A stretch of 64,000 nt of DNA from Psammoneis japonica (Eukaryota), in contig QPGO01000078.1 in the NCBI GenBank assembly GCA_008632985.1, positions 248,001 through 312,000 of the forward strand, read 5' to 3'. Positions within the stretch are counted from its first letter, which is position 1. Every line of letters starts with the position of its first letter. Shown in pieces: positions 13,981-61,949 of the stretch. The notes beneath the pieces are model-generated. The model was given only the letters and a program-made list of their open reading frames with translations, ran no database searches and had not been told where the DNA came from. A program made the translations under genes and the position numbers.

Positions 13981-14131
13981 GACAGACTGACCCACCGAAA
14001 ACCGAGCGAGCGAGCGAGATCTCCGCGCGCGCGAAAGCAGACCGGAGACTGGGCAAACGCCATGACCCATGATGCAACTTCAAAAAGGCGGCGGCGGCGG
14101 CGAAAATACCGTAGGATATGATTGACAAAAG

Positions 14132-15442: not shown

Positions 15443-15613
15443 CAGTACACATAATAGAATTCTTAAAATACCTTCAACAAACATTGTCGATTCTCTAGTA
15501 GAGAATGGCATACTGGAAAAGCCAAGACTTGGTCGCTTGCTAAACACAACGCGTCTTCTTAGCTCAACTAAGAAATGTCTTATGCTTTGATTACACCACA
15601 AATAATGTTTTGC

Positions 15614-16490: not shown

Positions 16491-16849
16491 TTTGTGGTTT
16501 TTATTCTGTTGAATATAGAATGTGCTTTGTTGTAGTCTTGGTGGTTACACAAAAGCGTTTGCGTTAGGTGTTCTTGTGGTCGGCGCTTTTTTGTGTGTCG
16601 TCATGGTTCTGCGTGGTCGACAATTGCTCCTCGGTGATCTCAGTACAATCTGCGTAGAATTCTACAGAGTTCAGCGCGAACTTGGCGCAAGCGCAACGCG
16701 CGAAAACATGCGTGATTGTCAATCTGAAATAGTCTTGTGATCTACCGGTACGATGTGCCTCCATTTTCGAGCGAATTTGGCCCCTCTATGAGTAACAGAT
16801 AACAGAAGTATCGACCTTGTCGACATTGGTACTGTCAAACGTCGAAATA

Positions 16850-32052: not shown

Positions 32053-32057
32053 ACATG

Positions 32058-36850: not shown

Positions 36851-36855
36851 ACATG

Positions 36856-39550
36856 AGCATGGCAGCACAGCTCCATGTCAAGGAGGGAGAAGCACAAGAA
36901 GACGGTTTCATGGGCAATGCAGTGGGTTTGGAAAGAAGGAGAAGAAGAGAAGACACAATCCAGACAATTGGCATGCAAGAGGAAGCACAAACAATTGAAA
37001 AAAGCTGCCATGATGAATTGGAACAACGAGGAGCAAGCGGGTTGCAAAAGAGTGCAGCTCCATTGGGCACTCAACATTCTAAAAGAAAAGGGCTGCACAA
37101 AATGTGTTGTGTTTGCCTGTGCACGGAAACAACACGTCTTGACTGCTTTGCAGTTGTTCCTGCAAGTGGCTGGCATGTCGCTCCAAGGACAAAGACTTTG
37201 AGAAGTGCTCCAGTCCTTTTGGGAGAATGGCGCCATTGCTTTGGAGAGCAATCAGCAAGACCAAGACTGCGCGGCCAGTCTCTTGTGTTTTTGGCAGATG
37301 AAGGATGTTCAAGAGAACTTTGCAAGGCCAGAACTGCTGTTGTCTGTGGACACCAATGAAGAGCGGAATGGCCAAGTGGCCGCCCAGGCCTTGGAGGATG
37401 CAGAGATGGTGGACAGCTGCGAAGGGTTGCCTCACGTGCTTCAAAAGATCGTTGCAAATTGCACAAGCTGCCATGATTCCCAAGATTTAGATGCTGCTTG
37501 CATGGCCCTTGCTGCAACTGTGGGGCATGAGTGAGACAGGTTCTCAAATGCTTCATCCAGCTTCTTCCTTGGACCAGCATGCCCATGATGCAAAGGAAAG
37601 CAAGGATGATGAGGACCAGGTGGGTGAATCAGCACCGAAGCACCACAGGAGCCTGTGAGCACAGTTTTCTTGATTGCAGGGGTGTGCCAGTTTCTGCTTT
37701 TTCAGCTGTTTGGCCAGACAAAAAAAGAAAGACCAGTTGAGGGTGATGCAGCAGAGAGATCCAATTTAGAGTGTTGTCAGGGTGTGCCGCAACTGGCCAA
37801 CCACCGAAAGGCAACAGGCAGGCGTCATGCATTTGCCATGCATCACAACATCTTGTGTGCCCAAATTGAGACCTTTGATCACTCTTTCAAGGGTGGTTGA
37901 ATCCACATCATGTGCTGATCTGATCAAACAAGCTCTTTTGTGAAGTGATGTGAGACATGCGCGAAGAATGAAATTTTGGCAACAAAGGCAATGCCATTCT
38001 TGCTCTGCAGTGCAGTTGAGTCGTTTGGTGTTCTCCCCAATTTTCAAAAAAGGAACTCGTGCATTGTTCCACCAGAGAGTGAGTCGTTGAGAGCAGCATT
38101 GGCATGCCATGGCCCTCTTTCATTTTGACAGAGAGCCAAAGAAAAGATGATGGTCGACAGACAGATCTTTGCTTTGTTGGAAACTGAAAATGGCAAACAG
38201 CATCCAAAGCAGCACTCTTTGACCAGGCACCCATCAGTTCTCTCTGCTGTTTGTTGCTTTGGCATGGATGAGTCATTCCTCAACCCAGGTTCATTTGATG
38301 ACCCTTCTGATTGCTCCTTTGAATGCAACCCTTCTGATGACTCCCATGAGTGCAACCCTTCTGACGTTGATCCTCAATCCAATGATCACAACTGGACCAC
38401 CACCCAAATGATTTCCTTCCTTCTTTCCTTGGTTTGTCCCATGAATGACAATGCTGCCACATGCTCCAATGCTCCAATGACCTTTGTGACTCCCAAAGTT
38501 GGTGTCAACAAGACTTCCCCAATCTTGTCTCTCATCCTCCCCTGCGCCAGTCTTTCTCCAATTTGGACTTGCCAGACCCAACTTGACATGACACCATTCT
38601 CCCACTGATCACCTTCCACCCAAGTCCTCCACCTGCTTCCCATCTTCCTCCGTTTGCAGCCCTTCCTCTGCCACCCCATTTTGCCCATTTTCTTGTTGAT
38701 CCTTTGGCTCCTCCCTGCTCAATCCCCAAGCTTCAGTCCTTTTGTTGCCCTCCTTGAGTCCGCCGTTTCCTCCACCAACTTGGCATCACCTCCAATCCAT
38801 CCTTTTTTCATTTCCTTGCACTTGCCTGCGCTGTGGACCCCCGCATTTTCACACCATCACCAGACCTTGCCCTCCTCCTTTGCAAGTGCTTCTACAATGA
38901 GACAGCCTGTGGTGAACCTCCCCCCTCTTTCGTCTGCCAAGTTCCCACACACACCTTCTTCACTTTGACAACTTTCTGTGAAATGCTTGGATGGATCAAC
39001 CAAGTTCTGACAGCACGTGTCAGAATGTGCTGCTTCCAGCTTGTCAACCTCGGCTTGCCCCCCAACCCACATCACACACCTGTGAAGAAAGCACAGAAGC
39101 TGCTCTGCCACCAGGTTGCTTTCCGCACTTGTCTGTGCAAAGGTCAAAATGTGATTGCATTCTCCCAACACCTTAAGCTGCACATCGTTCATTTCCTTGG
39201 CTCTTCAGGCATGTCCAATGTCTTCTTCACAATCCTGGGGGTTCCATCAAAATGAACAACGTGTCCTGGCAGACATGGCCAAACAAATCTCGATGCAAAT
39301 GGGGTTTCACTTTCTCACAGAGGTCATGGAAAACACTCACAACAGTGCTGGAGACAGGAACTGCTGAGTCAAAGCAGCCCTTCATTTCATCCATGCCAAA
39401 GACTGGCCACTTCACACTGGAGCACTGCTGGCATGCCTCACAAGTCATTCCTTTTGGCTCATCTGGAGGATTGTCCTTCTGCTCTTTTAGAAATGGATGG
39501 TGCAACTTGGCACCTGCTCAACATCAATCTAAAAGGGAGTCTTCAAAAAA
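36856..39550. repeat. Degenerate repeat related to 30950-31800 and 48000-48700
   Basis: Shared blocks, e.g. ttgttgccctccttgagtc at about 31540 and 38741, and cccaaattgagacctt at about 37860 and 48396; TpA-depleted. Confidence 0.55.
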
Positions 39551-39699
39551 AAAACCAAACCCCAATTTTAAGTGCTGTCGCACCTTTGCCCAGCAACTCC
39601 GGTGCCGGCCAACCCACACTTCCAGTGCACCCTGCGGAGGATGCGGCAGAAACACAGTGCAATTAGCCGGTTTCGGCACCCCTGTTAGAGGGCGCCCGA

Positions 39700-42210
39700 C
39701 AGAGACAGCTGCAAATGGCGCGAGTGCCGCTTTTTGCGAGTCATTTGGCTTCTTTCAGGCTGTCTTTTAATCTTGGACGGACCACAGAGATCCAGTTTTG
39801 GATCCTCGTTGTCGAAAATGACAGGTGTTCTTCGACCGAATCTAATGACACACCTCTGTCCTTTGCCAAGCATTCCTGTCGTTTGTTGTTTGTCGCCGTC
39901 AGTTCGGCTTCCGCCTTTCTTCTCTGAGATGATTTCCGAGACTCAACATCATGCCCATGAACCAACTTGTTGTGCTCCTCCCACAGTTCCCACCAGTTCT
40001 TCCACATGAAAGACCCCATCTGAACCGTCCAATCCAGTGGCTGTTTGTTTTCCTCCTGACATTGTCGTAAGATGCCTGAGTCGCGGAGGTGTCCGGATTG
40101 TAAAAGATTCCACATGCACGAGCATCTGCCGTTGAATGTCTGTCTCCATCCCATGTCCGATTGAGCTCTCCATGGTTCCTTGCATCGGCAATCCACGTCG
40201 TCGAGATGCGTCAGTTCTTCGTTAAACCAGGCCTGGAGCATTTCCAACAGAAAGTCACGGAGAGCAGGCATTGTGTCGATCTTGTCGCAATGATGTCGGA
40301 GACCCTGCAAGAACTTCCTTCTCCACTGTTCATCATTTGGACACCGAAGTGTGTGGTCCCTGTCCTCCATCGGATGCTCACATGTGATGCAGTGGTGCGG
40401 TCGAACTGGGTTGCATCTGTTTGCGATCTTGTTGGTCGGCAGCAAGTCATGGACCAGTTTCACGGCATTCACGTGTTGTTGTGAATGACGTTTCACCAGA
40501 ACCGCGTGAGCGTCCCAATCGATTGGATCCACCACTGAAGGATCCCATTTGTTCCGTTCGACAACACATTCCATCAGTTCAGGAGCAGTGGCAGCGCACC
40601 GGATCTGTTTCTTGCAGTTCGTCGTGATTGTGCATCCGTCAATCTCCAGATGCGAGAGGCAATGTGGCAGATGCTTGACCTGATGCATGTCATGCGGATG
40701 ATGGCCTTGACAAGCTCCTGCCAATTTGTCCGCTCGGATGTTAACTCTGGCATTTAATGGCAATGAGTGGATGGGAGATTGCCTGTCTTGATGTCCTTTT
40801 GCCCATTGCACTGGAGGCAGAGCGAGATCGGCTGCATCCGACAGTTGCGTCAAAGCTTGCTGGGTGTGGAGGATCTCATTCAAAACACCCCAATCCGGAG
40901 CCACAGCATTGGCCCCATGATGGCGAATGTGAAAGTCGTGTTGTTCATGTGCGTCATTCTCGGGATCACTCACCGGTGGGGTGGGAGTCAATTTAGACAA
41001 GCAGTTCGCCAGTGCTTTGTTGTCGCAATGAATCACTGCATCCAAAGGAACGGTGACACGGCAGTGTTCGCACAGCCGACAGATGAATCTTGCAATGGAT
41101 GGAATGCTGCACGCTTCTGCTTGGTGAGAGGACGGAGTCTTCCCAAAAACTGGCCCTGCACAATCCACTGGTGGTGCACCATCCACAGCAATGGTCCACC
41201 CAAAGGTGGCTCCATCTTGGACTGATCCATCACTGCCTGCGGTGAGATGAGACAAAAGAAAGCATTGAGCCACTGTTTGAGGAGAAACATGAAATGCCAA
41301 GTCTTCAAATGGTGTAGATTCCCACTTCTCGAGGCCCTGAAGATGCGACACAAAGGAATCTGGAGTGGTTGGAGAGTGGAAAGCGGTTGATGAAGTGCGC
41401 GGGATCTCAAAACGCCATCGTCCGTCTTCAATGGCAGACACCTCAACTGGGTGAGAAGAATCGGAAGGATTTGGTGCTGTCTCCATCTCTCTGACAGAAT
41501 CAGCGATTGTCCTGTTTGCTTGAAATGTGTCACAACCGGTTGGAGATGTACACACAAACACTCCTTGGATGGGGAAAAGCGTGCAGTTGATTGCATCCTC
41601 ATCTGGGACGGTGGCAGAAGCCAATCTCCTAGGGGCTCTTTTAAATGCAGTGACTTCGGATGGCACAGGGCTGAACAAAATTTCTTCCAGACTTTCCATG
41701 CTCGCTGGCATGGCTTGCACTGCTCGATGTTGTTGAGTGCACTGACACTGCTTTGCAAGGACGGTTCCCCTTGTGCTTTTGACCCATCCAGCGTCATCCC
41801 ATCTGAGAGAGCAATGTCTGAAACAGATGAGACTTTCAGGTGCAGACGGCAACAATTTAGCCACCGGATCTCACGCGCGGCAAAGGACTGGGAATGCAAA
41901 GCAACATCCATCAAGTGCTGGTCGTCATCTCGTTGAAGTGGAAGGACCCCGTTGTGGCGTAGAAACACCCGGCCATTGATCTGCTGTAAAAACAACCCAA
42001 CAGACGCGAACCATCTAGATTCCACATGAGGCAATGCGGCATCGACGTCCCACAAGAAACTCTCACCAGTTCCCAAGTTCAGTTGGATCCACGCTGCGGC
42101 GATGTGAAGAAGCTTGTGCGGTTGATCCTCCCCGAGCTGCAAGTGCAAAAGGGAGTCTTCAATGTCATGTGCAAAGGCATCAAAGCTGCCTTGTAGAAAC
42201 AGCAGGCGGT
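39700..42210 (-). mobile_element. 5'-truncated non-LTR retrotransposon with RNase H domain (Ambal-like)
   Basis: AGSDGSV, SSHQAEAC (expected SSYRAEAY), IHCDNKAL, WAKGHQD and NIRADKLA RNase H motifs; upstream LNCCRLHLKVSSVSDI; C-terminal CxxC..HxxxC knuckle. Confidence 0.75.
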
Positions 42211-44548
42211 TGCAGAATCCGGGCGAGTGCCATGTCTGCTTGGAATTTTTGTCATCAAAGCTCTCAACATGCTCTTGATGCAGGCTTCTTGCACTCTCTG
42301 GATGCTTGCTCCAGATTTCTTTCGAGTGTGTTGTGCAATTCTTTGGGCTTTCATGCTTGTGTCCTCTTTTGTTTTTTGTTTCCTTGCAGCACCCAGACTC
42401 CACATTGTGGCACTTCAGATCCCCTCCAATGATGACAGAGTGAGTCAATTCTTTGTTCAAAACCTTTTGACATGAGGGTTGCTGAGCAGTGCACCCAGCC
42501 AGTGAGATGCAACGGCTTCCCGCACTGGGGGCATTTTGTTTGCATGCTGCCTCCAATGTTGAAACTGTCATCCTTTGCGCTCTGTCAAAGATTTCTGGAC
42601 AAACAAAAACAATGTCCAAGTCAGAAGGAATCACGAATTCTTCCACTGCCTTCATGACTTCAGCTTCTGTCCATGATGGTCCAATGTGATGTTTTTCAGT
42701 GCAGAGCCTTGGGGGTGTGGGAATGTGCTTTGGGTGGCTTGGCATGACTCTGTCCAAATGCTTTCTCAGGTCTCCTTCTCTGAATTGAAGCAAGTCCTGT
42801 CATTCCCAGATGCCCTTCCTCTCTTTTGATCACTCATGGGCACTGCAAAAGGCATGCCACCTTTGTCAACACAAGGCAACTTGTCACATTCCTTCAGCTT
42901 CCTGAGGCATGCTTGGATGGGGTGAGCTCTTTTTCCACTTTTGGTGCTCGTCACATCTGAAGGGGTGGCAGAAGATGGTCGCGCGCTGGCTGCAAAGACT
43001 TTGAAGCAACATTTCTTCGGTGGAAGAACGCAGCCACAGACGACTGGGAAGACATGGCAAGTCATTGGAAACAACAACAGCTGCACGTGACAAGAGCACC
43101 AGTGCGACTGTTTTTGTCTCTGCACCCTTTTTGACTCTCGCTGATCTGGCTGCGCAAAGCACCATCATCATTTTGGTTGTTCGTCATGAGGAATTTAATT
43201 GCAACACAGAATGGCATGATGCACTGCACCAGAAAAAGACATGTGCCCAAGACGACATTGCTTGATGCTGCGATGCTCTGCATGCGTGCAAATTGGCACG
43301 CATGTCGCAGACACACGACACGCTGCGATGCACTCCGCAGCCTCTTCTGGTGTGTCGCATCGCAGCATGTCGCAGACATGTGAGAAAGCTGCGAGATGCG
43401 CCCACGCAGCCAAAATGAGTTTTTTTTCGACAGTGCTTCTACATGATCCCGTTTATTCTCTCGTGTCGGAGAGATCATCGGATCTCTCCATGCTGTCTGT
43501 GCTAGTCTGTCTGACAGAAGGGAGTGTGCTCCCCATCTCGGATGTCTGACAAAAACAAAAAATGCAGCTTTTGTGACCTTGCAAAAGCTCATCTCCTTTC
43601 GCGCTTCTGTGACTCCATTGTGTCGATGAGGAGATGTTCACAAAGGCTGAAGGACATCGACCGTCTATGTATGTCAAGCGACATCCGATTCTCAGCTTGG
43701 GGCTTGGGCTTGAGTGGAGATTCGGGACTCAACAAAGAATGGGCCGTGGGCTTCACGCAGGTTTAAAATGGTAAAAACGCCACCATATCCACGATTGAAG
43801 AAGCTCAACAGCCCATAACCCTCCCACGCTGAATGACGATGACGGCGGCGCAGACGGTTTAGATGCACTCGTCCGACACAATGGTGGCCGAGAGGGACAT
43901 GTTGGGAAGTGACATGTATACGATGACGACTTCAAGAGTCTTTTTTGCATTTTATACCGCTTCATTACAAGTCGACAAAATTTTGAAAAGCGGACGTGTC
44001 AATTTTGTTTGGAAACGAGAGGTTTTTTCAAGAGCAACTTGTACGACAATTGGATTGAGATTTTCTCTTTTATTGCGCACTATTGGAAGTACATAACTGC
44101 AAAAATACGTTTGCCTTTTATTGATCGAGAAGGAATGGGCATATGGCAAAAGAGTCCGACAACGGAAACAGATGATGCTCTCAGACTCCCGATGAATCTG
44201 GAAGCAGTGCAAATGATTCATTCATTCTCATTGCAGACGCACACCAGACGCATGTGTTTCTTGATTGGTTTATGAGCAACTACCAAAAGAACTGCTCTAC
44301 AAGAAAGCAAAGCATTGAGAAAAGATTCGCATCATCAAATCACCGTCGACATGGTCTTCGTCGAGTCGGAAGATTGACAGACGTTGTTAACAACGCGCGA
44401 GATAGATAGATCTGCGAGATCGATCGAACGCTTGCACGATGCGCTTCAGGAAACGAGAACTCTGACGCAACTAACGCGATCATAAATCACAAACCTGGTA
44501 CGAAACTCAAAGTAGCCTTCTCGTTCTTTTCGAAAACATTTATGCACA

Positions 44549-47739: not shown

Positions 47740-47925
47740 GAGAAAAAATGTGAGATGGAATTTCCGGGAAAGATTCTCACACAGAATCTACAAAAGATTG
47801 CACCACAACATCTTTCTGCGGGTTTGCGCTCTGAGAAAAAATGTGAGATGGAATTTCCGGGAGACATTCTCACACAGAATCTACGAAAGATTGCACCACA
47901 ACATCTTTCTGCGGGTTCGCGCCCT
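47740..47925. repeat. 93-bp tandem duplication
   Basis: gagaaaaaatgtgagatggaatttccggg...ctgcgggtt x2 (tgtgagatgg at 47749 and 47842). Confidence 0.85.
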
Positions 47926-50005
47926 GCTCTGCTCTGTGATTTCTGATTGTGCGGAGCACAATGATTTTCTTCGTTTCACATGAAACTGCAGCAACCCTCA
48001 TTCAAACTGACTTGCCAGCATGTGAAACATGCTGGCTCAATTCAAAAAAAGGTGACTGAGGCTGCAATGCACCGCAGCAATGACAACGGCATGCCCATGA
48101 TGCAGCTGAAAGCAAGGATGATGAGGACAAGGTGAGCGAATCTGCGCTGAAGTGCCACAGGAGCCCATCAGCACAGCTTTCTTGATTGCAGAGGCATGCT
48201 GGTTTTCGCGGGTTTTTCAAACCATTCGGTCAGACAAAAAAAGAAGAAGAAAGACCAGTGGAGGGTGATGTGGCAGAGCCAAAGCTCACACACATGCACA
48301 GACCCTGGAGTGCTGTGGGCCCTGCAACTGGCTGACCACCAAAAGGCAACAGGCAGGCATCGCGCATGTGCCCTGCATCACAACATGTTGCGTGCCCAAA
48401 TTGAGACCTTCGATCACTCTTTTGAGGGTGGTTGAATCCACGTTGTGGGTTGATCTGATCAACCAAGCTCTTTTGTAAAGTGACATGAGATGTGAGTGAG
48501 TGAACTTTGACAAAGAGACAGCGCCATTCTTGCTCTCGTTGGCATGTGCACATTGCACCTCGCTTTACATGTTGTGTTGTTCTGTTGCACTCAATTGACT
48601 CCTCGTTTGGCATTCTCTGTGATTCTCCCCAATTTTCTAGAAAGGAACTCAAATTGTTCAAGAGCCCTCTCTGGATCGCTCTCCACTCTTGCTGGAGTGG
48701 CTGTGGCAGCCAGCTGGAGACTGCACTCCCAACTTGGCAGGTCTGCAAGGCTGCCACTGCCAGCAGAGAGCAGACTGCACAGCAGAGTGAAACGAAAGGA
48801 AGGACAACGGTTGATGGACAGAGCCTCATTCTGGTTTTTTTTGCTTTTTTTCTCCAGCTGGCTGCTGGAGCTAGAGAGCAGAGAGTGCTGCGAATTGCCA
48901 AACAATTGCGTGATTTGCGTGCCCGAAGCTCGAATGTCGCTGCCTGAAGCAACATTCACCATTCGCGCTGCAAATCATGTAGAACAATGTAGAAAACACA
49001 CTGGAACTCCCCTGTCAAAGCCAAATCTTTTTCTTGCAGTCGCCGTCACATCCACCATGAGTGGATCTGCAACGTGCTTGCCGCAGAAGCACTGAGGACA
49101 CTGACATTGCTGCCAGCGGTGATGCAATGCCAGCAGATGTTGAGAGAAACATTGCCATGGGAATGCCAGAGCCAGTGCGCCATCAAATCATCGAGCAACT
49201 GCAGAAGCCAAACTGCTGCGGCAACACCAAAAACATGAAGCAGACTCTCAAGGATGCCTTTTGCAGCACAAAGATCAAAAGGCTTTTCTTGACAGAACAT
49301 GTCAGAAGAAGATGAGGTGCTGGCATCGCTGTCTGTGACAAAGATTTTTGGCAAGTTCTGACAGGAACAACTTTGTGCAATTTGACCCGCTGCAAAATTG
49401 AATCATGTTGCTCACATCATTTCTTTTCATTTGGAAATTGAACAATGAGCAGCTGTGCTGACTCACAGGATGAAGGCACCACCATCATCAAAATGGGGCT
49501 CTGGAAGAATTGTGGTTGGCTGGCATTGAAGATCTTGATGAGACGGAGGAGAAGAGCACGATGCAACAATTTTTGGATTGGTGCTCTCCAAGGGCACTGG
49601 CTCGTTTGCACCTCTCATTGTGGTTCCTTCATGACATGATGCGCGTCAAGTGGGACACTGTGATGCTGAAACCCACTCCATGTGCTCTCTCATCTGCCCC
49701 ATGTGTGTGCTGGGTGCTGAAAAAGAAGATGTGTCACGACTTTGTCGCTGTGAAAATTGTGAGCCAGTTTAGAGCAGAGAAAATGGGATCGTGCGAATGG
49801 GGAATCTTGCCAAATCCCTGTTCGTTCGCATTTGGATCGCATCAAATCGATTGTGCACTCGCATCATGGATCGTGCGAATCAAGCCATCACGCGCCATGC
49901 ACAAGTGATGTCATCGTGTGGAATCACGCTGCCATCGTGGGCCAGACGACGGGCTGGTGTGCTTCACACGGATGCTCTCTTAGCATCCTTCTGGAATTGC
50001 CCAAG

Positions 50006-53000
50006 TGCAGCATGCGACTGTTGTGTGCACAATTGTGATCACACATTGTTTGTGTGTCAATCGCAACACAGTCGTGGATGCGCACAAAGGACAGAACGAT
50101 CACACAGAGTTGATCGGATGTCGAGAATTGCAAACACGATCGATTGACGATGTTGACATCTTGCGTGTCAATGGCAATCGCATCCGGACAATCTGTTGTC
50201 ATGAACACATTCTCCGAAAGGCCTTTTGTCTGTAGAAGCAGTGCAGAAACTTTGGGCCATTGAGAACTCGTTCGGAGAAACCAAAAATCACAGAGTGAAA
50301 TTCAATCTCACAATTTTTCACTTTTTGAACTTCGTTCTACTTTCGTTTGCACTCGTTCTTCGAGCATGGTGCATTGTGTGTGCACACCACAGAAGGTAAA
50401 AAGCAAGGAAAATGAAAATTTCAACTAATGTGCCTTTGCAAATTCTTCTGCAAACAGGAACGAATTGCATCCAGCGTTGTAAAATCGCCAACTTGATTGC
50501 AATCTTGTTTGCAATTCGATTGCGGATCGCGATCGAAACGATTGCAATCTGCTGGTTGTTTGTCTGGCGCTGGTCACAAAGATCGCAATCGTGTTCGCGA
50601 TCGATCGCGATCGATTCGTGTCTAAAATTTAGTCGTGAATCGGGATTTTCATCGCACACGGGACTAAAAATTGACCGAAACGTGGCACACATTCACGAAA
50701 AATGCGTTCTTGCGCAGAGGGCGCCCCTGCGTGGGGCGCGCAAATTCCGCGCGGTGGCCAATCGCGATCGCGATTGCAATCGATTGTCACACGTGGCAAG
50801 CGCACGCGCATTGCGATCTTTCGATTGCTGCGAAGCCGCACGCAATCGATGGTTGCAATCCGTGATTGTTGGGAGAAAGTCAACGATTTTATAACGCTGA
50901 TCGCATCAGTTCTGCTGGAATCGATTTCCGAGCGGAAGAAGCTCAAGCCGAGCAGTGCCTCAAGATGGAACGCTGTTTTTCATCTGCCAAACAAGAGGAT
51001 TCGCTCCAATGTGGTCCATTCCAAGCACCCAAGGATCAAGGGCTCTCAAGCACACCGCATTGTCAAAAAATCCCACACCAAGTCATGGTTGCAGAGAATG
51101 CAAGTTCCGAGTCGATCAGATCCGAGAAATGCGTCTGCCATGCAAGGAGAGACTGTTGGAGAGTTTTTTGAGACCGAGTTGATGATCCTCGAGTCCAAGG
51201 AGCAAGAGGGAATCGTTGGAAAGCACCTCAAGCGTCTCACAACTCATGTCCTCCGAGGAAATGCACTTCAGAATCAGGGAAATTATTTTCGAGACGACCT
51301 GAAGAAACCAGAGCCGCTCAACAGCAAGAAAGCCTCTGACAGACCCAAGAGGTCAACGATGAGAGTCTGTGTGACCCTCAGATGGATTCTAAGTCGAATC
51401 TAGCGGGAAACCGAGCGCTGATTTATCAGCTGTCACTCGCACCGCAAGGATGGCAGCATCAGCCTGCTGTCCAAAATGTTGAACTGCTGGATCACACCCT
51501 TGACAAGCTGATTGAGGTTTGAGTCGTCCAGAGGTCGGCAAGGACGTCTGTGACAAAAAAACATGTCAATTCGGGCTCTGACAGTGCAGTTGATTCCACA
51601 ATCAAAAAGGCCCCAATTTTGGTTCCAAAAATGGTCTCCCACATGGTGCCGCCACAATCCAAAGTGAACAAAAGGTCCAATCTTTGAAAGAAGAATGCCT
51701 GCATCACGGATTAAAGCCATTCTGAAAATGAACCAGTGAAAGAACGCCGTGGACACATTGAGCAATGATCCGAAACGGTGCCGTTCTAATGGCAATCGCA
51801 CGTGGAGTCGCGACAACGAAAATGCCGCTCGCAAAAAAAGAGATGAACGTCATGATTGATCAGGCGGTTCAAAAAACACTCAAAGCGAGTTCCTCGAACA
51901 AAGAAAAAGAGCACAAGGGCAAAGAATCAGATTCTGACACCCTCAGTGAAGAAAAACACCAATTTGATCGGATGATCCAGACTGAATCCGAAGAATGGTT
52001 TGGGTCCATTCACGAATTGTTTGCTCTGCTGGATGTTAGGAAGCCTGGAAAAAAGGCAGAAATAATTCACACTAGTCCAGGAGTCATCATTTATATGAAC
52101 ACTTCCTTGGGAAAGGAGAGAAAAAAGCACCCATGTGTTCTCTCGATAAAGAACATCGTCAGCCCATGATTTTGCGCAAAATCGTGCGAAAGTTGAGAAC
52201 CAAAATATCCGCCACCAAAAAACTTGGGAAACCAAGGGTGAGCTCTTTACGACTGACAGTAGAAACCGAATTCAGTTCTCACTATGTAAATTTAAGACGC
52301 ACTGATGTTCAAACAGCATGTGTCGATAACACGAAATCTTCTTCAAGGTTGAGTAATATGATCATGGGACGCGACTTAATGTCCAGTCTTGTAATCATAT
52401 TAGACTACGGAAATGAAGAAGTCAAATGGGAAGAAGCAATTACCCTATGAAGAATGTTCATACACTCTTCGATGCCGATGTTTTCAAGCTGAAAACCGAT
52501 CACATTGAAAAATATGACGCCGTGAATAGAGTTAATAACGGAACCAATGGTCCTCGACTCACATTATCACGCCATCGATCCTAATCAAGTGACAACTACG
52601 GCGATGCATCTAACCCAAATGAACACAACCAACTCAATCTTCTTCTTAAGAGGTTGAAATCTTTTTGAAAAGTTCCTCAGACGAATGTATGGGAAGAACC
52701 AGTGGATCTCATCGTGGAAAATCTGACGCGATTCCACGACGCGTGAGAACCTTCTCCTATCATAGTCTTTGGAGGCGTCCAATCAAAAGGAATTTGACCT
52801 ATTATGAAAGATTGAAGTCTAAAAAAATGAAATTACTCTGAATCAGTCGCTCTGAGACTCATTGTCTAAAGAAAACAGGTCGAGTTTGACCTTATCCGAC
52901 ACTCAGAAGCTTGGTAAAAGGTTCATACACGTGGTGTATCCTTTATCTAATATTCAGGAAATACCATTAAAGTAAGAACGTTTCATATATGTAATCTAAT

Positions 53001-55118
53001 TGATTCAAACATGGAATGCCACCATGTCAAATAAAAAAAGGCACACGTCGTGCTCACACGAAAATCATGCCGTGGGGAAAAATGAGTACTATAGACTTCC
53101 AACGAGAGGCTATAGAGCCCCAGATATTTTTATACAACACATGAGCGAACTCATGGCAGGTTTGAAGTTGTCAGAACGACTATAAATGATCGTTTATGCC
53201 TGACAAAAAGTGACTTCAAAATATCACCTGTACAAGTGACAGCTTAATACGGCATTTAAACGACTAGAACAGTCGCTTAGAAGGTTAACAACAAAAGTCC
53301 TTCACTATTTAACTTGAAATAAACTATCAAGACTTCCATACGTAACGATATGCATTCGATTACAAAGAAAATGGAGGCGATTCAAGCAATCGCAACATGA
53401 GAAAAACGTAAAGAACACTACGACATCTCGTCGTTATACGTTACTACTATCGAGACATGTAGTCTCAACGATCTCCTGTACAATACTAGCCAGATTCACC
53501 TCAACAAAGGTCAAACGGCAAAAGTACAAGTACGGAACGAAAAGTCTCCGAAAATATGGAGCGTATCAAATCAAAAACTATATTGTTATCATACACGTAT
53601 TTCAATATTATACGTTACAACGGAAAAAAGAACTTATGTCCATAGTGAAAACACTTATAAACTTCCGAAATATACTGTTTGGCCAACAGATTTATATATA
53701 TACGGATCATAAGACACAACGGACAAAGTCATACGTTGGCGACTTACAATAGAAAACTTCAGTCCCGCATTAAAATACAACGAGGGCAAGGCGAACATCG
53801 TCGCGATAGACGCGATCAGCCGACTTACTATAGAAAATTGAATCCTACGACAATGTCCTACCGTTAAAACGGGATAAAGATATTTCCCTCCAAATTGTCG
53901 GACGCGACATATCATACGAACACTTTTCGTGGAGGCGAGCGAGATCGAAAAATGCTCATATCATAAGGATAAAATCGCCTTTTTAAAAGGACGATTTAGG
54001 AAAAAACAGTGACAGATTGGCACACATTATACGCACCCACTTCACACTGGCAAAAGACAATCTCACAACACCCGTGCGGTTGTATTGTACAATGTACGAG
54101 GCAAGACATTAAAGTGCACATCATGTCGACACACGAGATGTGCCAAAGATCTAGAAAAAGAAAAGAAAAATGGACATTTGTCCACCAGTGCACGAAAGCA
54201 GTGCCTTCGGAATGGCAAAATGAGGCCGGCATGTCAAAAAGAAACGTCCAAGTGACGATTAAAATCCAACTGATAGATGGTTGAAGTGCAAAAAAAATCC
54301 ACAATGGACTTCACAACCATCACAGGATTGATTGTCAAGACGAAATGGTCGTGTCCTTGACTGTCGTCAATTGCCACTTAAGAAATGTGGCAGTGCAGCA
54401 GAGCAATGTTTCACATGAAGAAAGCCCGCCAAACTGCACGAAATCCACAAACAAGCAAGTGAACGCCAATTAAGTGCGCACATCAAGCACTGGGCAAAAT
54501 GCTGTGTACAATCGACACCATGAAAGAACAGCAGGACAATTGGTCCGTGTGTCCAAATGAACATGAGACAAACCATGACACTCTCGAAAGACATTTGGAA
54601 AATGAAACGGCCCTGTGCATGCTGGCCTGCAACAACAACAGTCATTGCCAATGGCACAATGCAGTGAACGTGGAGACATCATTGACACTGTCAATGTCCA
54701 TCGAACAATCCACTTGGCAAATGACTCTGATGTGCAATTGGGGAGGCGAGTGCAGCACGCGACTGTTGTGCACATAATTGTGATTGCACGTCATTTGTGT
54801 GTCAATCGCACCACAGTCGTGGATGCGCACAAAGGACAGAACGATCACACAGAGTTGATCGGATGTCGAGAATTGCAAACACGATCGATTGACGATGTTG
54901 ACATCTTGCGTGTCAATGGCAATCGCATCCGGACAATCTGTTGTCACGAATGTGTTCTCCGAAAGGCCTTTTGTCTGTAGAAGCAGTGCAGAAACTTTGG
55001 GCCATTGAGAACTCGTTCGGAGAAACCAAAAATCACAGAGCAAAATTCAATCTCACAATTTTTCACTTTTTGAACTTCGTTCTACTTTCGTTTGCACTCG
55101 TTCTTCGAGCACAGTGCA
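50006..55118 (+). mobile_element. Non-autonomous Gypsy-type LTR element inserted in the 3' LTR of the outer Gypsy
   Basis: 368-bp LTRs 50006-50373 and 54751-55118; 4-bp TSD CAAG; PPT ggggaggcgag; decayed pol traces (MIMGRDLM, EYYRLP..APDIF, YYRDM, YTDHK). Confidence 0.88.
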
Positions 55119-55269
55119 CAAGACCCAGAGCCACGCCCTCCTGTGGTCGTGCTTCCCAGGTGCATGTTAACAACACTGCGTTGCCATGTGCAAGAGGCTT
55201 GTGCACGGTCTCGCCGTGTTGTCCAGCAGCAAGGCATGCTGCACACTCCCCCATGATCAGGGCCGTCAA

Positions 55270-58200
55270 GTGACAGGATGTCTTGCTGGTGACAGGGCAC
55301 AATCTGCTGCAGATTGTGCGCATCCATCAGCGCTCCATTCTGGACATGCAACGTGCCGTTGTCACACACACGGACAACTCTGGCGGGTCCTGCACAGCTG
55401 TCAGAACCGTGTTTAGAGGATTGTTCCTGTTTGACAAGTGCCAATTGCCCTGCGGCACATTGATGCTCCTTGCGTTTCTGATTTTCACACTTGTTGTTTG
55501 GGTGGGTGAGCTTCTGCTTTCTGGTTTCTGTGCACTTCCACTCAGCACGATGGGCAACAGACAAAAACCGCATCGCGTCCGAAGACCAATTGCACGGGAC
55601 TTGCACGCGTGGTCGCATGTGCCGCAGCTCTGATGGCGAAGGCTGCTGCGGAGAGGATGCCACTCCATGGGTCATCTTCGTCCAGTTCCATGTCCTGCAC
55701 TGAAAAGGAATGCACCATGTCACCAAGTGTCTGGTGCACACGTTCCACTGTGGCATTCGCCTGTGGATTCCGTTTGCTTGTGGGTTTCTTCAAAATCCCA
55801 CAGTCATTTTTAATCATCTGGCTAAATTCTGCCATAAATTCTGTCCCACGGTCATGAACCACCTGGGTTGGCCACGGATGTCTGCATGGCCACGTTTGTT
55901 CCACGACATTTGCTGCGACGTCTGCGCGTTTCATAGACACTTCTTTAATCTCGAACCACCCGGTTGCTGGGTCAATCATTGTGACTGCCCACAATTGCAA
56001 AGTGTCCTTTCCGCGTCTTTGAATTTACATGGCCCTGTCACATCTGTGCGTGGAGTCTCCCATGGAATTGTCTCTGCGACCTTTTCTGGCAGCTTCCCAT
56101 GATGCTGCGTTCGGCGTTTTGTCTTCTGGCATCGATTGCACTTGGCGCACGTAGAGTGCACCGTAGACCTCATGCCAGGCCAATGGAAGTGCTGGGCAAC
56201 AGACATTTCCGCACGTGTCTCACCTGGATGACACAGTGTCTCGTGGTGCCATTCAGTTGGCGGAACCTGCAATGACTGTGGTGCTGCGATTTTGTCCTTA
56301 TGACAGATTAACTGTCGTGATGACCCTCCCCCACGATGCGCGCGAATGGAGCAGTCGGACGAGTCCTTGGCTCGTGAGAGCAGGCGCTTGTCCTTTTGTT
56401 GTGCTTTTTGAATGCGCTTGAAGCCAACAGGCAGAGATGTCTCATCTTGCGCGTCTGCATTAAAAGCTTCATGCAAAGGACGACTCATCCGGATTGGCCT
56501 CGGAAGGCAAGCTGGGTGCCAGTCAAAGGCGACTAAGAGCGTCAGCGACTGGGTTGTGGGTGCCCTTGACATGGCGCAATTCGGGGCCGTGTTCCTCGCA
56601 TGTCAACCGCCAGCGCACAACGCACTCGGCATTGAATGCTTTGTGCGCAAGATTTTTATGATCAGCATGTGCAATTGTGCGATGACCAAGGACAATCGTT
56701 CGAAATTCTTTCAACGTCTCCACAATGGCGAGCAATTCTCTCTCCGTTGTTGCACAATTTAATTGTGCACTGTTGAGCTTTCTGCTGCAAAAGGCGACAG
56801 GTTTGTCATTTTGGGATGCAACTGCTCCCAATTGACATTTAGAGGCATCGGCACGCATCTCAAAAGGTTTGTTAAAATCAGGATGTGATGACAAAACATC
56901 ATCCGATGTCACCCGTTTGACGGTTTCGAACGTCTCGTCTTCAACGGACGTCCACTCCCACTTGACAGTCTTGCTTGCAAGTCATGTCAGCGGAGCCAAG
57001 ACTTCAGAATGTCCAATCCACATGTCACGGCAGCAGTTCACCATGCCAACAAATGAGCGCAGGTTGCGTTTGTTGGTTGGGGTCGCGATTCGCTTGATGG
57101 CATCGACTTCATTGGGTGTTGGTCGCATTCCGTCTCTGTTGACCAGATGACCCAAGCACTCTAATTGGGTTTGACAGAAGTGAGATTTAGTTGTGTTGAC
57201 TTTTGGTCCTGCTTTCTGGACCCTCAACAAAACTTCTTCAAGTTTGTTGAGGTGATCTTCACAGGTGCCTTTCGTCACGACGAGAAGGTCATCTGAGTGT
57301 GTTCGAGCGAACGACAAATCTTCAAATGAGCCTGACATGCGTTCTTGGAAAATGTCTGGCGAGTTGCACAATCCCATGGGCAATGCCTGCATCTCATGCT
57401 TGCCCCACGGGAAGATGAGCGTGCAGAGCTTCTCACTGTCGGCATCCAATCGGATGTGACAATGGCCCATGTTTAAATCCAGCGATGTGGCCCACGTGAA
57501 GCCTTCGAGCTCAAGCAGCATGTCTTGGACATGAGGAATCGGACAAGGCAATCGCTTGATCCGTTTGTTCAGCTCTCTCAAATCATTGACAAAGCGCGCC
57601 GTTAAATCTTTCTTCAGCACGACAAATGATGGAGCTGCCCGTTGGGATCGGTCAACGCATTTGAGAACACCAATGCGTGCTGGGCGTTCTATTTCTTTAC
57701 GTAGCGTAGCTTCGTACGCACGAGGCACTTTATACGGACGAGCGTGGTGTGGTTCTACACCCTCCTTGAGTTGGATGTGGTAGGGTTCTCCCTTCCATTC
57801 TCCTAATGTCCCATCAAATAAGGACTCATGGCGTTTCAACAGTGCCAAAAGGTCGTTTTATGTGACCTATAGAAAGTCCTATTGCCCCTCGCGTTATGTC
57901 CTCGAGGCAGGCCGGCGCGCACTTAGCGTCTAAAATACGCGAAATCCGGTCGGTTTCCGAAGATAAGGCTTCTGGATCTTGAAGATAGAAGGAGGTTTCT
58001 ACCGTAGCATCTACGTGCCTCATTGGTACTTCTCCATTGACTAATGGCCACTCTATCATCTGTTTAGAGAAGACAATATCAATGCCGTGTGTCTCCAGAA
58101 TGTCACGTCCAATAATCATACAGTGTCGTACTTGCCCAACTTTCCGTTGTGTACGTGGACGGCATGTTTAAGTTCTGCAGTTTCGGATAATTCTGGCAAC

Positions 58201-58400
58201 CGAAATTTAACGGTACAGTCGTTAGACGTACTGAACGAGCCTGCTACCGTAGTCCAGTTTGTCTCAGCCGTTGAATGGCTTCGCAGACGTTTACAGTGTC
58301 GACTGTCGAGTTGAGCACTGCTGGCGCCACCATCTGGTAGTGCCTTAATGGTTTGAGTCTTGCCCTTGCCATGTTTAGCATTCACAGCTATAAACAAGAT
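55270..58400 (-). pseudogene. Gypsy pol (protease, RT, RNase H, integrase)
   Basis: ALPDGGAS/IIGRDIL protease; SLDLNMGH, LPMGLCNSPDIFQ and RTHSDDLL RT; ADASKCQLG and TERELLAIVE RNase H; TMIDPATGWFE, HDRGTEF and NPQANATVERVH integrase. Confidence 0.9.
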
Positions 58401-58529
58401 TGGAGCAAGATGAGTCTTTTTAACTCGTTTGCGGGATTGGCCTACAACACGTGTACGATGGCAATTCAGTTGTTCATTTGCACATTCATCTGATGTGTCA
58501 AAACTGCCTGCATCGTGTCGGCCCCCTTC

Positions 58530-59510
58530 TCAGGCGTCCGAATCTTCGGAGTCACTTAAGTTGAGGTCGCAGAAGTGATTGGGCTCCTCCTCACGTGCCT
58601 TGCGCTTTTTCTGAGCGTTGGCAAAGAACTCCTCGACCTTCGATCCGATGAGAGCATTGATGTCTTCCTCATTCCGAGGTTTTGTGTTGGGCTTGCTGCC
58701 TCCGTTGTTGGAATGTCCAGTCTTGACACGTTTCACGTGGTGCTTGAGCTGATGGCAATCCTCCGCATGATGTCCACAGTTGGTCCCGTGTGGCATGCAC
58801 GACTTCTGGGTGTTCCGTTGGGTCGTGATCAACGACTCAGGATTGTCCGTTCTACGTCCCCACTTGCGTGGAACCTCAGCATGTTGGTCCTGGTTACCTT
58901 CGGCAAGCTCGACCTGCTCGATGCGCTCGCAGAACTGTGTGAATTCGGCGACAGCATGCGCCAACGGGTCAAAATTCTGTAGCGTCATGAACTTCTGCCA
59001 TGCGTTCGGCACACCGTGCTCGAACACATCGCATGGTTCGTCATTGGGCAATGGTGCCGGTGCTTCTCCATCCTCCATCACGGGTGGAAACTGAGAGACA
59101 CAGCTGTTAATTTCAACAGCCCTCGCGACGCAGTCACGAGTGGAAACCTCTGCGGGCTTGCGCATGAAGCGCCTCAGACAACGCTTCTGCAATGGCGCCA
59201 CCCTGTGTGGGAAGATGCTTTCCTTTAGCTTCGCGATGCATGCTGCATGCGTGGCGTTGGTTTGGGATGCCTGCTTGTCATCGCCCTGCAGCAGGTCACG
59301 CATGAGGGCAAATTTTGCTGGCCCAGTCGTGATGTTTTGTCCTTCGTGCACGCGATCCACGTTGTGCAGAAAGATTGGGAGTGTCTCGCATGTAGCCGCA
59401 GAAAGGTGCGGAGTGCCCATCTCGTGCGTTGGACCATCCGGATCAGCGGGGTTGTCATGCAGCTTTAACGTCTGGCACTCGCCTTGCTGCAGCTCTTTTT
59501 CTCCGGCCAT
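58530..59510 (-). pseudogene. Gypsy gag
   Basis: QKRCLRRFMRKP, FEHGVPNAWQ and CMPHGTNCGHHAEDC zinc knuckle; lies between the 5' LTR and pol; contains no Tyr. Confidence 0.75.
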
Positions 59511-61949
59511 GCGAACGGAATCGGCGGCTTGGTCCGCTCCTTCATGGTCGTTTTAAGATTTGTCGGTCCTGCCAACATTTTGTAGTTTCGTTTCTGTGGA
59601 TTTCGTTGCCTCGCACAATGTGCGGGAGCAATGTTGCTGTGCCCTGTGCATGTGCCAGGCGCTGAAAAAGAAGATGCGTTGCGACTTTGTCGTTGTGAAA
59701 ATCATGAGCTGGTTTGGAGCAGAGAAAATGGGATCATGCGAATGGGGAATCTTGCCAAATCCCCATTCGTTCGCATTTGGATCGCATCAAATCGATCGTG
59801 CACTCGCATTGTGGATCGTGCGAATCAAGCCATCACGCGCCATGCACGAGTGATGTCATCGTGTGGAATCATGATGCCATCGTGGGCCAGACGACGGGCC
59901 AGTGTGCTTCACACGGATGCTCTCTTGGCATCCTTCTGGAATTGCCCAAGACCTGGAGCCACGCCCTCCTGTGGTCGTGCTTCCCAGGTGCGTGTCAACA
60001 ATGCTGCGTTGCCACGTGCAAGAGGCTCATGCACGGTCTCGCCGTGTTGTCCAGCAGCGAGGCATGCTGCACATCATCCATGACTGACAATGCCTCCTGC
60101 CACATCAAGGACTGTGGTTTGTTCTTCAAGATTCTTCACATTCCTGATGAGGAGGCTGCTCACAAAATTCAAGCTCAATTCATGCCATCAGGCAGCTGGC
60201 ATGAGCATGCCACAAGAGTTTGGGCAAGGTGGTGAGTGCACACAGTGACAAAGCTTTGTTGCTTGCTTTTGCAACCGCTCTTTTAGTTCTTTTAACTTGG
60301 CACTAGAATCTTTTTTCCAACTGCAGTGCTGCCCAACATTCGCCGGCTTGCCAGTCTCAAGGCATTGTGGCTGGCTTGATTTAGATTGAAATGTGATCGA
60401 TCCTTTTCAATTCTGCAATGTCATCAACAGCTCCAGTGAGTTCCAGTTCATTCTTGTGGCACTGGTGCATCTTGCGCGTCCAGAGGAAGACATCACAGTG
60501 TGGCATTGGATTCTCTGCTTTGTGTGTCGCTGCGCAATGAGCGGGCGATCTCAAAATCACACTGCAGACTGGACCGTGAACATGAAGAACAAAGAGGGCA
60601 GGGTGGGCCTCTGCACTGGGTGCCACTGAAATGGGTCACGATGAAGTTGTCACTTGTCTTTTGGATCAGGGTGCTCGTGTGGACATCAAGAGTGCATTTG
60701 GCAGCACATCACAACTGGAGCTGGTGGAAAACTGAATGATCACTGACTCATCTGACAGATCACATTGCTTTGTCTGAGATGCCAGGATTGGCTTGAACTT
60801 GCTTCCTGATTCTCCATCCAAGATCTTCACACTGAGTGCATGTCAGGATCCCCCTCATCAGTGCTTTTTGCTGTTTCGGACCAAGCATTTTGATGGGTTG
60901 CGAAATGGGTGGATGTGGAGCGGACTTGCAGCCCAGTTTGTGGCCTCCCACATCGGTTTCATGCAAGCTCCAAATGGCCCCGTCCAATGCAAGCAGCCCC
61001 ACTTGAACATTTAATGCATTTGACCATGCGCGAGTCAACTCTGCCTTGTGCAACCCCAAAGTTGGCTCATCCCGCGTGTCGTGATCTGGTGAAAACAGGA
61101 CACGTGCCATTGCATGCACCTTGAATCACATGCAATGAAGCGCATGTCACCAATTCCCTCACAGTCATGATGAGGAACATGATGACACTCTGCAGACACA
61201 CCTCGACCCAGAACAAGTCTGGGCACTTTTGGCCCCATGCAGAGCAAACACATCCAAAGCAGCCACGCGCACTTGATTGTTACAAGACGCACGCCATGAC
61301 GATTCACAACATCCTTTCCAAGCTGATCCAATTCATCCACGTGTTCCAAATGCAAGTGGGTGGTGCAGAGAGAATGAACATCTGAAGATGCGGCAGCTGC
61401 TTGAGATTTGGCTTGGATTCCAGCGCACTGCGCTTCATCCCATTGAGCCTGAGAGTGGCATCTCCTCTGGCACCACCACGAGAAGGACAAGGCGCTAACC
61501 TCGAGGTGATTTGGGGAGTGGTGCGGTGCTTTGGTCTTCTCGCATGCAGCATGATGAAAGCAAGCGCTCGCTGTGAACGTCATGGTCTCGCATCGGAGGG
61601 AAAAAATGAAGGTGTTCGGAGTGTGTTGTCAATCGGCATTTTGGTGCAAATTCTACGTAGTTCTACATGATTTGCTGCGCGAACGGTGATTGTTGCTTCG
61701 GGCCACTCCCAGCTTGGGAGGCTTCGGGCAACGAGATTTGACCTTCGCGCACGTGTGTCGTGCAATTGTTTTGCAATTCGCAGAGCACACTGCAATGGAG
61801 GGAGAGAGAGAAACGGACAAAGGAAGAACGAGACGAAGAAAACATGAAAAAGGAAAAAACTGTGGCAATTGGTGTGACGATGGCATCCCATGATGGATGC
61901 AGCAGCTCTTTGCTGCACCTCCCGAAGTGGCCTCCCGACCCTCCGCCAT

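Follow-up and report, generated by a model that had tools for sequence, protein, structure and literature searches.

Transposons in a diatom genome are hypermutated at TpA dinucleotides after integration

A window of 64,000 nucleotides from the diatom Psammoneis japonica (positions 248,001 to 312,000 of contig QPGO01000078.1, assembly GCA_008632985.1; all positions below are counted from the first letter of this window) carries a Ty3/Gypsy long terminal repeat (LTR) retrotransposon that has lost nearly all of its TpA dinucleotides to CpA or TpG. The loss is the outcome of a transposon-directed, TpA-specific A:T>G:C hypermutation that acted after integration and inactivated the elements. It was first noticed in 55542-57690, where the minus strand holds the reverse transcriptase (RT), RNase H and integrase coding part of the element, and where an original prediction, made from the letters alone, held that nearly every lesion in the conserved pol motifs reverts to a TpA. 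That region is part of a much larger phenomenon, and is one visible piece of a process that runs across the window and probably across the genome. The account as a whole, in which a DNA-level process turned about 95% of the TpA of the integrated Gypsy element into CpA or TpG and thereby inactivated it, with a deaminase as the proposed agent, is one that we hold to be likely.

In 55542-57690, 20 TpA were counted against 126.5 expected, giving an observed-to-expected ratio (O/E) of 0.158 with CA at 1.60, TG at 1.45 and CG at 0.87. This TpA ratio lies 5.6 standard deviations under the mean of 79 related metagenomic Gypsy loci (0.77 +/- 0.11, minimum 0.57), and TpA poverty as a trait of the Gypsy family was rejected on that ground. 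Segmentation of the window by a two-state hidden Markov model assigned 40.7 of the 64 kb (64%) to depleted blocks with TpA O/E of 0.01-0.13, all of them repeats or transposable element (TE)-like sequence, and 23.3 kb to normal DNA. Pooled, the depleted blocks have a TpA O/E of 0.08 with CA at 1.60, TG at 1.65 and CG at 0.54, compared with 0.56, 1.18, 1.21 and 1.00, respectively, in the remaining 23.3 kb. Five Pfam-identified host genes, encoding fasciclin, cysteine synthase, IBR, zinc-finger/PHD and DUF7640 proteins, sit mainly in normal segments, and the depleted block 11701-14100 stops 26 bp short of the cysteine-synthase open reading frame (ORF). A spread of TpA loss from transposons into genes was rejected by the segmentation. 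An 800-bp low-TpA segment was called at 20701-21500 inside the zinc-finger/PHD ORF (O/E 0.24, CpG 0.97); this call is probably false, the depletion being compositional rather than the result of hypermutation.

The direction of the change was read from conserved codons. We aligned 120 homologues codon by codon and kept columns with at least 60% agreement among at least 40 homologues, by which 144 of the 513 conserved pol columns in the depleted part differ from the homologue majority. TpA>CpA or TpA>TpG changes alone revert 65 of these 144 differences, while any AT>GC transition reverts 76, any GC>AT transition 10 and CpG decay 8. T>C/A>G changes in other contexts explain few of them (2 at TpC, 4 at TpG and 2 at TpT), in line with the enrichment at ancestral TpA that had been predicted. 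Under stricter columns, which leave 86 differences, the TpA rule explains 50, AT>GC 57, GC>AT 8 and CpG decay 7. The commonest residue changes were I>V (12), Y>H (10), Y>C (10), T>A (10), V>A (7), I>T (7), L>P (4) and K>E (4). None of the 23 conserved tyrosines is kept, His and Cys replacing ten each and Trp, Phe and Ala one each, and at the same columns the homologues carry Tyr in 2295 of 2489 cases, His in 30 and Cys in 7. All 12 conserved serines of the depleted part are retained. The loss of every conserved Tyr codon, together with the catalytic Tyr of RT, inactivated the element.

An empirical null came from 40 of the 79 related loci, taken in order of locus id from the first, which were put through the identical pipeline. 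TpA-rule differences made up 4.2% on average and 10.1% at most in these controls, compared with 45% in the window (P ~4e-27), and the controls retain 88% of their tyrosines, compared with 0 of 23 (P ~1e-21). The transition bias of the controls is reversed, with GC>AT at 19% and AT>GC at 11%. Removing the 65 TpA-type differences leaves 79 of 513 columns (15%), a value inside the control range of 8-19%, so that changes of the TpA type account for practically the whole of the excess damage. The statement that nearly every lesion goes back to TpA thus fails for the raw differences (65 of 144) and stands for the excess over the controls.

The strings on which the original prediction was built are present on the minus strand, namely HSDD (CAC TCA GAT GAC, 57288-57299), LGHRTIAHADHKNLAH, MGHCHI, LECLGH, VNCCRD and ASKCQLG, and the ancestral motifs proposed for them agree with the majority of the 120 homologues (GYYHI, LEYLGY, VNYYRD, AShyQLG and LGQqIeVyTDHKNLTY). 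The YLDD ancestor proposed for the catalytic box was right in its Tyr, found in 120 of 120 homologues, and wrong in its Leu, because the majority reads YIDD (Ile in 118 of 120, Leu in 2); the Ser of HSDD is a pure TpA reversal only if the family had Leu at this place. Relatives carrying HSDD, or His and Cys as the usual residues at the Tyr columns, which would have told against the prediction, were absent among the homologues. Among the residue changes that had been foreseen, Y>H/C, I>V/T, V>A, T>A and L>P were borne out and S>G was not, and inactivation is upheld by HSDD and by the missing tyrosines.

The timing of the change was read from sister LTRs. The Gypsy element and a younger LTR element nested in its 3' LTR (element 2) are both bordered by matching target-site duplications (TSDs), and both are therefore simple insertions whose LTR pairs were identical at integration. 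Three segment alignments from the two elements gave 822 aligned positions with 60 mismatches, 56 of which are transitions and 54 of which lie inside aligned pyrimidine-purine (YpR) dinucleotides. Thirty-eight of the mismatches form 19 doublets with CA in one LTR and TG in its sister, and CpG decay predicts 0.42 such doublets in these LTRs, where both copies still have 43 of the CpG and decay in a single copy is seen at 12. With 4 single changes of TA to CA or TG, the sister LTRs differ at 23 sites that are or were TpA. Because sister LTRs differ by CA/TG doublets, the mutation hit the DNA after integration; lesions that predate integration and are shared by sister LTRs, as ADAR-type editing would leave them, are not what was found, and the process acted on integrated DNA rather than being a fossil of RNA editing.

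A fit to the same alignments gave, per LTR copy, a probability of 0.95 for loss of a TpA, 0.12 for decay of a CpG and 0.008 for change at other sites, and placed about 42 TpA in the LTRs at integration, which is 5.1% of dinucleotides. Two TpA-rich islands that lie inside the elements have a similar density, with 197 TpA in 3070 bp (6.4%). Two TpA are retained in both LTR copies and belong to the refractory GTAG/CTAC class. Expressed as relative rates per copy (about 3.0 for TpA, 0.13 for CpG and 0.008 for other sites), the TpA process outran CpG decay by about 23 times and other substitutions in the same LTRs by a few hundred times. The nested younger element has fewer CpG-type LTR differences than the host Gypsy element (3 against 9), yet TpA in its LTRs is already exhausted, indicating that the process is fast.

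Both strands are hit, as had been claimed: of 67 inferred events on the coding strand, 29 gave CA and 38 gave TG (P = 0.33). The order of these outcomes along the element formed 36 runs, compared with 33.8 +/- 4.0 in shuffles. Since the outcomes are balanced and unclustered, sites were hit singly; the runs test rejected a strand-coordinated mode, in which a processive, kataegis-like sweep would follow one strand. The 185 TpA that survive in depleted blocks are skewed in their context, with A at position -1 in 5% of them compared with 29% in normal DNA and T at position +1 in 8% compared with 27%. Counts of tetranucleotide classes are given in Table 1; by chi-square they depart from those of the islands with P = 3e-17 and from those of normal DNA as a whole with P = 3e-23. 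In codons with both outcomes visible and one favourable half-site, 12 of 16 had changed the A that precedes a pyrimidine (P = 0.038; 7:4 for Tyr and 5:0 for Ile). The half-site test and the survivor skew together therefore point to a preferred site of 5'-T-A-Y-3', which is 5'-R-T-A-3' on the other strand. R-TA and TA-Y sites are the most mutable and Y-TA-R sites the least, and ATAT and ATAC are extinct in the depleted blocks. Tetranucleotide excess on the product side agrees with a 3'-pyrimidine preference in 5 of 5 asymmetric classes but, being confounded by CpG decay and composition, carries no weight here.

Table 1. Tetranucleotide classes containing TpA, counted in 39.9 kb of depleted and 22.9 kb of normal DNA
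Class	Depleted	Normal	Ratio per kb
ATAC	0	132	0
ATAT	0	63	0
GTAC	4	59	0.04
ATAG	8	113	0.04
ATAA	16	143	0.06
GTAA	26	114	0.13
CTAC	39	120	0.19
CTAA	39	94	0.24
CTAG	15	27	0.32
TTAA	38	57	0.38

The natural substrate of TadA/ADAT enzymes is A34 of tRNA, which follows the invariant U33. In the mechanism that we favour, the adenine in 5'-T-A-3' of DNA would be deaminated to hypoxanthine by a TadA/ADAT-like deaminase, and hypoxanthine would pair with C, so that the strand struck would change A>G and its complement T>C. The enzyme may be directed to silenced transposon chromatin or guided by TE-derived RNA. Targeting through chromatin or RNA, and not through repeat pairing, is a guess on our part, which we favour because of the sharp gene borders, the exhausted single-copy relics and the accompanying CpG decay. 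One such relic occupies 46.7-48.7 kb, an old diverged repeat with a 77% match at 37577-38006, which is exhausted of TpA at single-copy depth (64-81), and therefore present-day repetition at 80% identity or above is unnecessary for the process. Such a process would serve as a genome defence that resembles repeat-induced point mutation (RIP) with opposite polarity, and may be the same as that of the chlorarachniophyte Bigelowiella natans. We put forward only tentatively, and with more doubt than belief, the wider proposal of a DNA adenine-deaminase defence (a "reverse RIP") against transposons and viruses that prefers 5'-T-A-Y-3', employs a TadA/ADAT-family enzyme redirected from tRNA U33-A34 to silenced chromatin, is common to diatoms and chlorarachniophytes, and hence may be old in the stramenopile-alveolate-rhizarian (SAR) group.

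A lesion on thymine could have produced the same record through the same in-situ, TE-directed process, a modified base such as 5-hydroxymethyluracil being taken for cytosine in pairing or repair. A>G on one strand is T>C on the other, so that the extended context can equally be read as R-[T]-A, and thymine hydroxylation with a TpA preference occurs in dinoflagellates. However, we know of no thymine modification that gives near-pure T>C change, and excision repair should add transversions and indels, whereas 56 of the 60 LTR mismatches are transitions. The substrate context of TadA/ADAT enzymes, furthermore, matches TpA, and the authors of the B. natans work favour adenine deamination in the main text of their preprint (Mettrop et al. 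2026, bioRxiv 10.64898/2026.01.13.699255). We regard the thymine lesion as unlikely, though deserving of more weight than the explanations that follow.

Editing of RNA before integration was considered as well. To our knowledge, ADARs are not found outside animals. In this scheme, sense and antisense transcripts form double-stranded RNA, an ADAR-like enzyme turns the A of UpA into I, and the product is then reverse-transcribed and integrated. The element is a retroelement from a high-copy family (depth 10,000-30,000, compared with about 70 for single-copy DNA), and template switching could yield a mosaic with unedited islands. By contrast, LTR pairs that were identical at integration now differ by the doublets and single changes described above, and the doublets imply that the LTRs, with their roughly 42 TpA in 822 bp, entered unmutated. 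Moreover, a 95% loss with ATAT and ATAC extinct is far over the reach of hyperediting, which touches about half of the adenosines, and adenines outside TpA are untouched. ADARs do prefer a U on the 5' side and, in double-stranded RNA formed by repeats, hyperedit either strand, as summarised in the main text of the same preprint (10.64898/2026.01.13.699255). We consider fossil RNA editing very improbable.

It could also be supposed that no special process is needed, methylated-CpG deamination supplying the CA and TG and a low TpA content being native to the family or selected. The TE blocks are indeed CpG-poor (the pooled 0.54 against 1.00, and 0.23 in 11701-14100), and the 12 LTR differences of CG against CA or TG demonstrate that CpG decay operates. 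It explains 8 of the 144 codon differences, however, against 65 for TpA, and 0.42 of the 19 doublets; CpG O/E in 55542-57690 is 0.87, which bears out the earlier claim that CpG decay is not the cause there; the 79 related elements hold TpA at 0.57 or more; and the loss of all 23 tyrosines together with the catalytic one means that this composition is not native to a working element. CpG decay or native composition is already refuted as the main cause, and we give it next to no credence. An artefact, in which a base modification leads a long-read basecaller to miscall TpA or polishing scrambles repeats, is as hard to credit: polishing toward the family majority could make islands, and the sole supporting run may come from the assembly's own sample, but accurate, high-depth contigs of that run agree with exhausted single-copy stretches of 1.1-1.9 kb at all but 0-2 letters, the two LTRs differ within one assembly in their fixed CA/TG choices, the amino-acid changes are coherent (mostly His or Cys at Tyr), and the main text on B. 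natans describes the same signature with Illumina data (10.64898/2026.01.13.699255).

The supporting contigs mentioned above come from one public run (X1). At a depth of about 60-75 in single-copy DNA, they reproduce exhausted stretches almost letter for letter, 60045-61915 having 0 differences and 47888-49034 and 44001-47822 having 2 each. Two further runs (X2 and X3) contained next to none of the window's sequence words, and no RNA run was listed among those containing the sequence. Summed contig depth over both elements was 5,800-31,500 (5,800-17,400 in the interior of element 2), far above single-copy depth, indicating that both belong to families of hundreds of copies. Sites where at least 10% of this depth differs from the window are overwhelmingly transitions, with A>G at 286, T>C at 284, C>T at 258 and G>A at 289, compared with 8-27 for each transversion. 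In the single-copy relic the window and the run differ at four positions, with CpG in the window and TpG in the run at 47341, 47648 and 48677, and T and C, respectively, at 48613.

Several points speak against the favoured account. Its evidence is historical, resting on LTR pairs and conserved codons, and no enzyme, hypoxanthine or de novo event was observed. In the single-copy relic, the four positions at which window and run disagree all lie outside TpA, and thus give no sign of ongoing activity there. TpA is palindromic, and a lesion on T (for instance, a modified thymine misread as C) fits equally. The supporting run may be the assembly's source sample and is hence non-independent. A second TE, a Copia-type remnant, gave 18 differences in 47 conserved columns of which 2 were of TpA type and 3 of CpG type, and is too decayed for the test; its ORF (32604-34145) had no long homologues, an exhaustive search matching only about 65 residues. 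Finally, the two TpA-rich islands have sharp edges and lie inside elements with exhausted LTRs, which uniform in-situ action is insufficient to produce.

The island of the Gypsy element is not an insertion, because the pol frame and the homology run continuously across its edge at 57690. It has been lightly hit, with 5 of its 19 differences of TpA type and 3 of its 5 tyrosines kept and 2 lost, an excess of TpA-type change for which P is 9e-4 under the mean null and 0.04 when the worst control is taken instead. The islands may stem from ectopic gene conversion by an unmutated donor, from protection of the site, or from polishing that drew a high-copy repeat toward its consensus. An X1 contig at depth 44.5 joins 55557 to 58435 with 13 other letters between, suggesting an internally deleted derivative of the Gypsy family without most of pol; the right end of this joint is 25 bp from the right edge of the island.

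Self-comparison and junction inspection delimited the complete Gypsy element to 49695-60073 on the minus strand, with two direct LTRs of 434 bp, TG..CA termini, a polypurine tract, and a 5-bp TSD (TCATC) at each flank (Table 2). Pfam matches on the minus strand follow the Ty3/Gypsy order of protease, RT, RNase H and integrase, with RVT_1 (E 5.7e-16), RT_RNaseH_2/RT_RNaseH (2e-25/1e-23), Integrase_H2C2 (1.6e-11) and a weak rve match in 55542-57690, and the pol region is colinear with homologues of 1000-1100 amino acids, its RT being 57-64% identical to those of the 120 intact homologues. Five frame changes (near 58119, 57885, 56500, 56024 and 55563) and an in-frame stop (56982-56984) interrupt it, and three of the frame changes match indels (58121, 56023 and 55563) that distinguish the window copy from other genomic copies. 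With HSDD in place of an intact YxDD box and no open pol frame, this copy is dead, which leaves its family membership unaffected. The interior of element 2 holds only an RNase H fragment (tblastn, 53624-53865), Pfam on its ORFs having found nothing else, and a polypurine tract, GGGGAGGCGAG, directly precedes its 3' LTR. Contigs of X1 and X2 join 49683 to 60102 with 36 other letters between, at about single-copy depth in X1; this joint looks like an empty-site allele or an uninterrupted paralogue of the older repeat that hosts the Gypsy element.

Table 2. Features of the window and their positions
Feature	Position	Strand	Evidence and remarks
TpA-exhausted RT/RNase H/integrase coding region	55542..57690	-	TpA count; Pfam domains
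TSD TCATC, left copy	49690..49694		Junction inspection
Gypsy 3' LTR, piece 1	49695..50005	-	91% identical to 59640-59950; TG terminus at 49695
Gypsy 3' LTR, piece 2, CA end	55119..55245	-	90% identical to 59943-60083
Gypsy polypurine tract, just inside 3' LTR junction	55246-55253	-	Junction inspection
Gypsy internal region	55246..59639	-	Pfam, homologue alignment
Integrase	55286-56602	-	Gypsy internal region
RNase H	56523-56981	-	Gypsy internal region
RT	56982-57857	-	Gypsy internal region
Protease	57889-58523	-	Gypsy internal region
gag-like ORF	58530-59552	-	Gypsy internal region
TpA-rich island in Gypsy element	57691..58460	-	TpA O/E 0.83, CpG O/E 1.05
Gypsy 5' LTR, 434 bp, unbroken	59640..60073	-	Self-comparison, junctions
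TSD TCATC, right copy	60074..60078		Junction inspection
Nested non-autonomous LTR element (element 2)	50006..55118	+	Splits Gypsy 3' LTR; self-comparison, junctions
Element 2 LTRs, 368 bp, TG..CA termini	50006-50373 and 54751-55118	+	Self-comparison
Element 2 TSD CAAG	50002-50005 and 55119-55122		Junction inspection
TpA-rich island in element 2	52001-54300		TpA O/E 0.73, CpG 1.20
TpA-exhausted block	4301-11300		O/E 0.07; segmentation
TpA-exhausted block	11701-14100		O/E 0.01; segmentation
Largest other TpA-exhausted block	27601..43600		TpA O/E 0.05, CpG 0.41; Copia-type integrase remnant 33381-33662

Two of the depleted stretches, 11701-14100 and 28001-30000, are the oldest-looking, with TpA O/E of 0.01-0.03, CpG of 0.03-0.23 and CA/TG of about 2.0, leaving CA/TG as the only YpR dinucleotides; they suggest either heavy decay of methylated CpG in addition to the TpA process or a single enzyme that acts on A as well as C. 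Once TAA and TAG are lost, TGA is the only stop left, resulting in many long overlapping ORFs of up to 709 amino acids on both strands (for example at 39744-41870, 41036-42799 and 61742-63118), and in depleted blocks outside the Gypsy element a Pfam match was found in 1 of 23 long ORFs scanned. No deaminase match was found among the window ORFs scanned with Pfam. The host genes are long uninterrupted ORFs. The zinc-finger/PHD ORF (987 amino acids) carries internal tandem repeats of about 100 bp at 21997-22907 with 72-83% identity, and in the ORF at 44516-46450 the DUF7640 repeat recurs seven times (E 1e-64), with internal DNA repeats at 45152-45393 and at 45877-46246. As a weak lead to the host, the DUF7640 cluster is commonest in Bacillariophyta; organism-named matches of the cysteine synthase were only to Nitzschia inconspicua and Minutocellus, at 55-57% identity, and among all its matches none was above 70%.

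A cellular process of DNA hypermutation at TpA toward A:T>G:C was not known before the Bigelowiella preprint of 2026. The sister-LTR evidence, the rate relative to CpG decay and the R-TA/TA-Y over Y-TA-R motif, which constrains the enzyme, are added here, in a diatom, that is, in a different major lineage, one with genetic tools, and with the process far more advanced than in B. natans. With two distant hosts, the responsible gene may be found by comparative genomics, and a DNA adenine deaminase, should that be the agent, would be nature's equivalent of the engineered adenine base editors. If the "reverse RIP" proposal holds, it would mean a natural TpA-specific DNA A-to-G editor and a major, hitherto unseen influence on the composition of algal genomes, whose strength in this diatom suffices to remove virtually all favourable TpA from every transposon. 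For annotation such elements are a trap, since on exhaustion they lose their Tyr codons and two of the three stops, acquire spurious long ORFs and escape homology searches.

Among known systems, hyperediting by ADARs is alike in giving A>G on both strands with a 5' U/T preference, but its target is RNA that has yet to integrate, it also edits outside UpA and it stays short of saturation, whereas integrated DNA was struck here. The APOBEC3 proteins of vertebrates likewise kill retroelements by deaminase-type hypermutation with context-specific transitions; they convert C to U on minus-strand cDNA, giving a strand-biased G>A change at reverse transcription, whereas the change seen here is A:T>G:C, strand-symmetric and post-integration. 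RIP of ascomycete fungi is also a post-integration, dinucleotide-specific production of transitions on both strands that kills transposons and leaves nearby genes largely intact. Its polarity is opposite, CpA being turned into TpA so that relics become AT-rich and TpA-rich, whereas here TpA is removed and GC raised; C>T at CpA, the RIP change, explains 0 of the 144 codon differences, and TpA is depleted rather than in excess. RIP, furthermore, needs duplicated DNA and a sexual cycle, whereas a stretch at single-copy depth is exhausted here too.

The closest counterpart is the TpA hypermutation of integrated viral DNA in B. natans (Mettrop et al. 2026, bioRxiv 10.64898/2026.01.13.699255), the sole report that we found in a literature search that had subscription journals and bioRxiv supplements outside its scope and returned no report from a diatom. 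This kind of process has thus been described once before; the host group, the targets, the near-saturation, the evidence from integrated DNA and the extended motif are new. According to the main text of that preprint, two integrated viral regions gained 231 de novo mutations, of which 230 were A>G/T>C and fell without exception on TpA, at a rate about 1000 times the background, an ADAT2-like candidate was proposed, and low-TpA coding sequences were enriched for reverse transcriptase and DDE endonuclease domains; this main text makes no mention of trinucleotide or flanking context, diatoms, retrotransposons or LTR. By its account the evidence in B. natans consists of de novo mutations, compared with the historical record analysed here, and the host is a rhizarian rather than a stramenopile. 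LTR retrotransposons and old repeats are struck here down to O/E of 0.01-0.16, compared with 0.45 for the nucleocytoplasmic large DNA virus (NCLDV) insert given there, and 64% of the window is affected, compared with 124 clusters in the callable nuclear genome of 85 Mb, given there as 90% of the genome. The hallmarks reported for B. natans recur nonetheless in the window, where almost all directional change is A:T>G:C (76 against 10 of the 144 differences), is restricted to TpA with TpG or CpA as its product, and, by the segmentation, is confined to mobile DNA with host genes normal. Common to the two hosts, as far as that main text allows the comparison, are A>G/T>C transitions at TpA only, yielding TpG or CpA and confined to foreign or mobile DNA.

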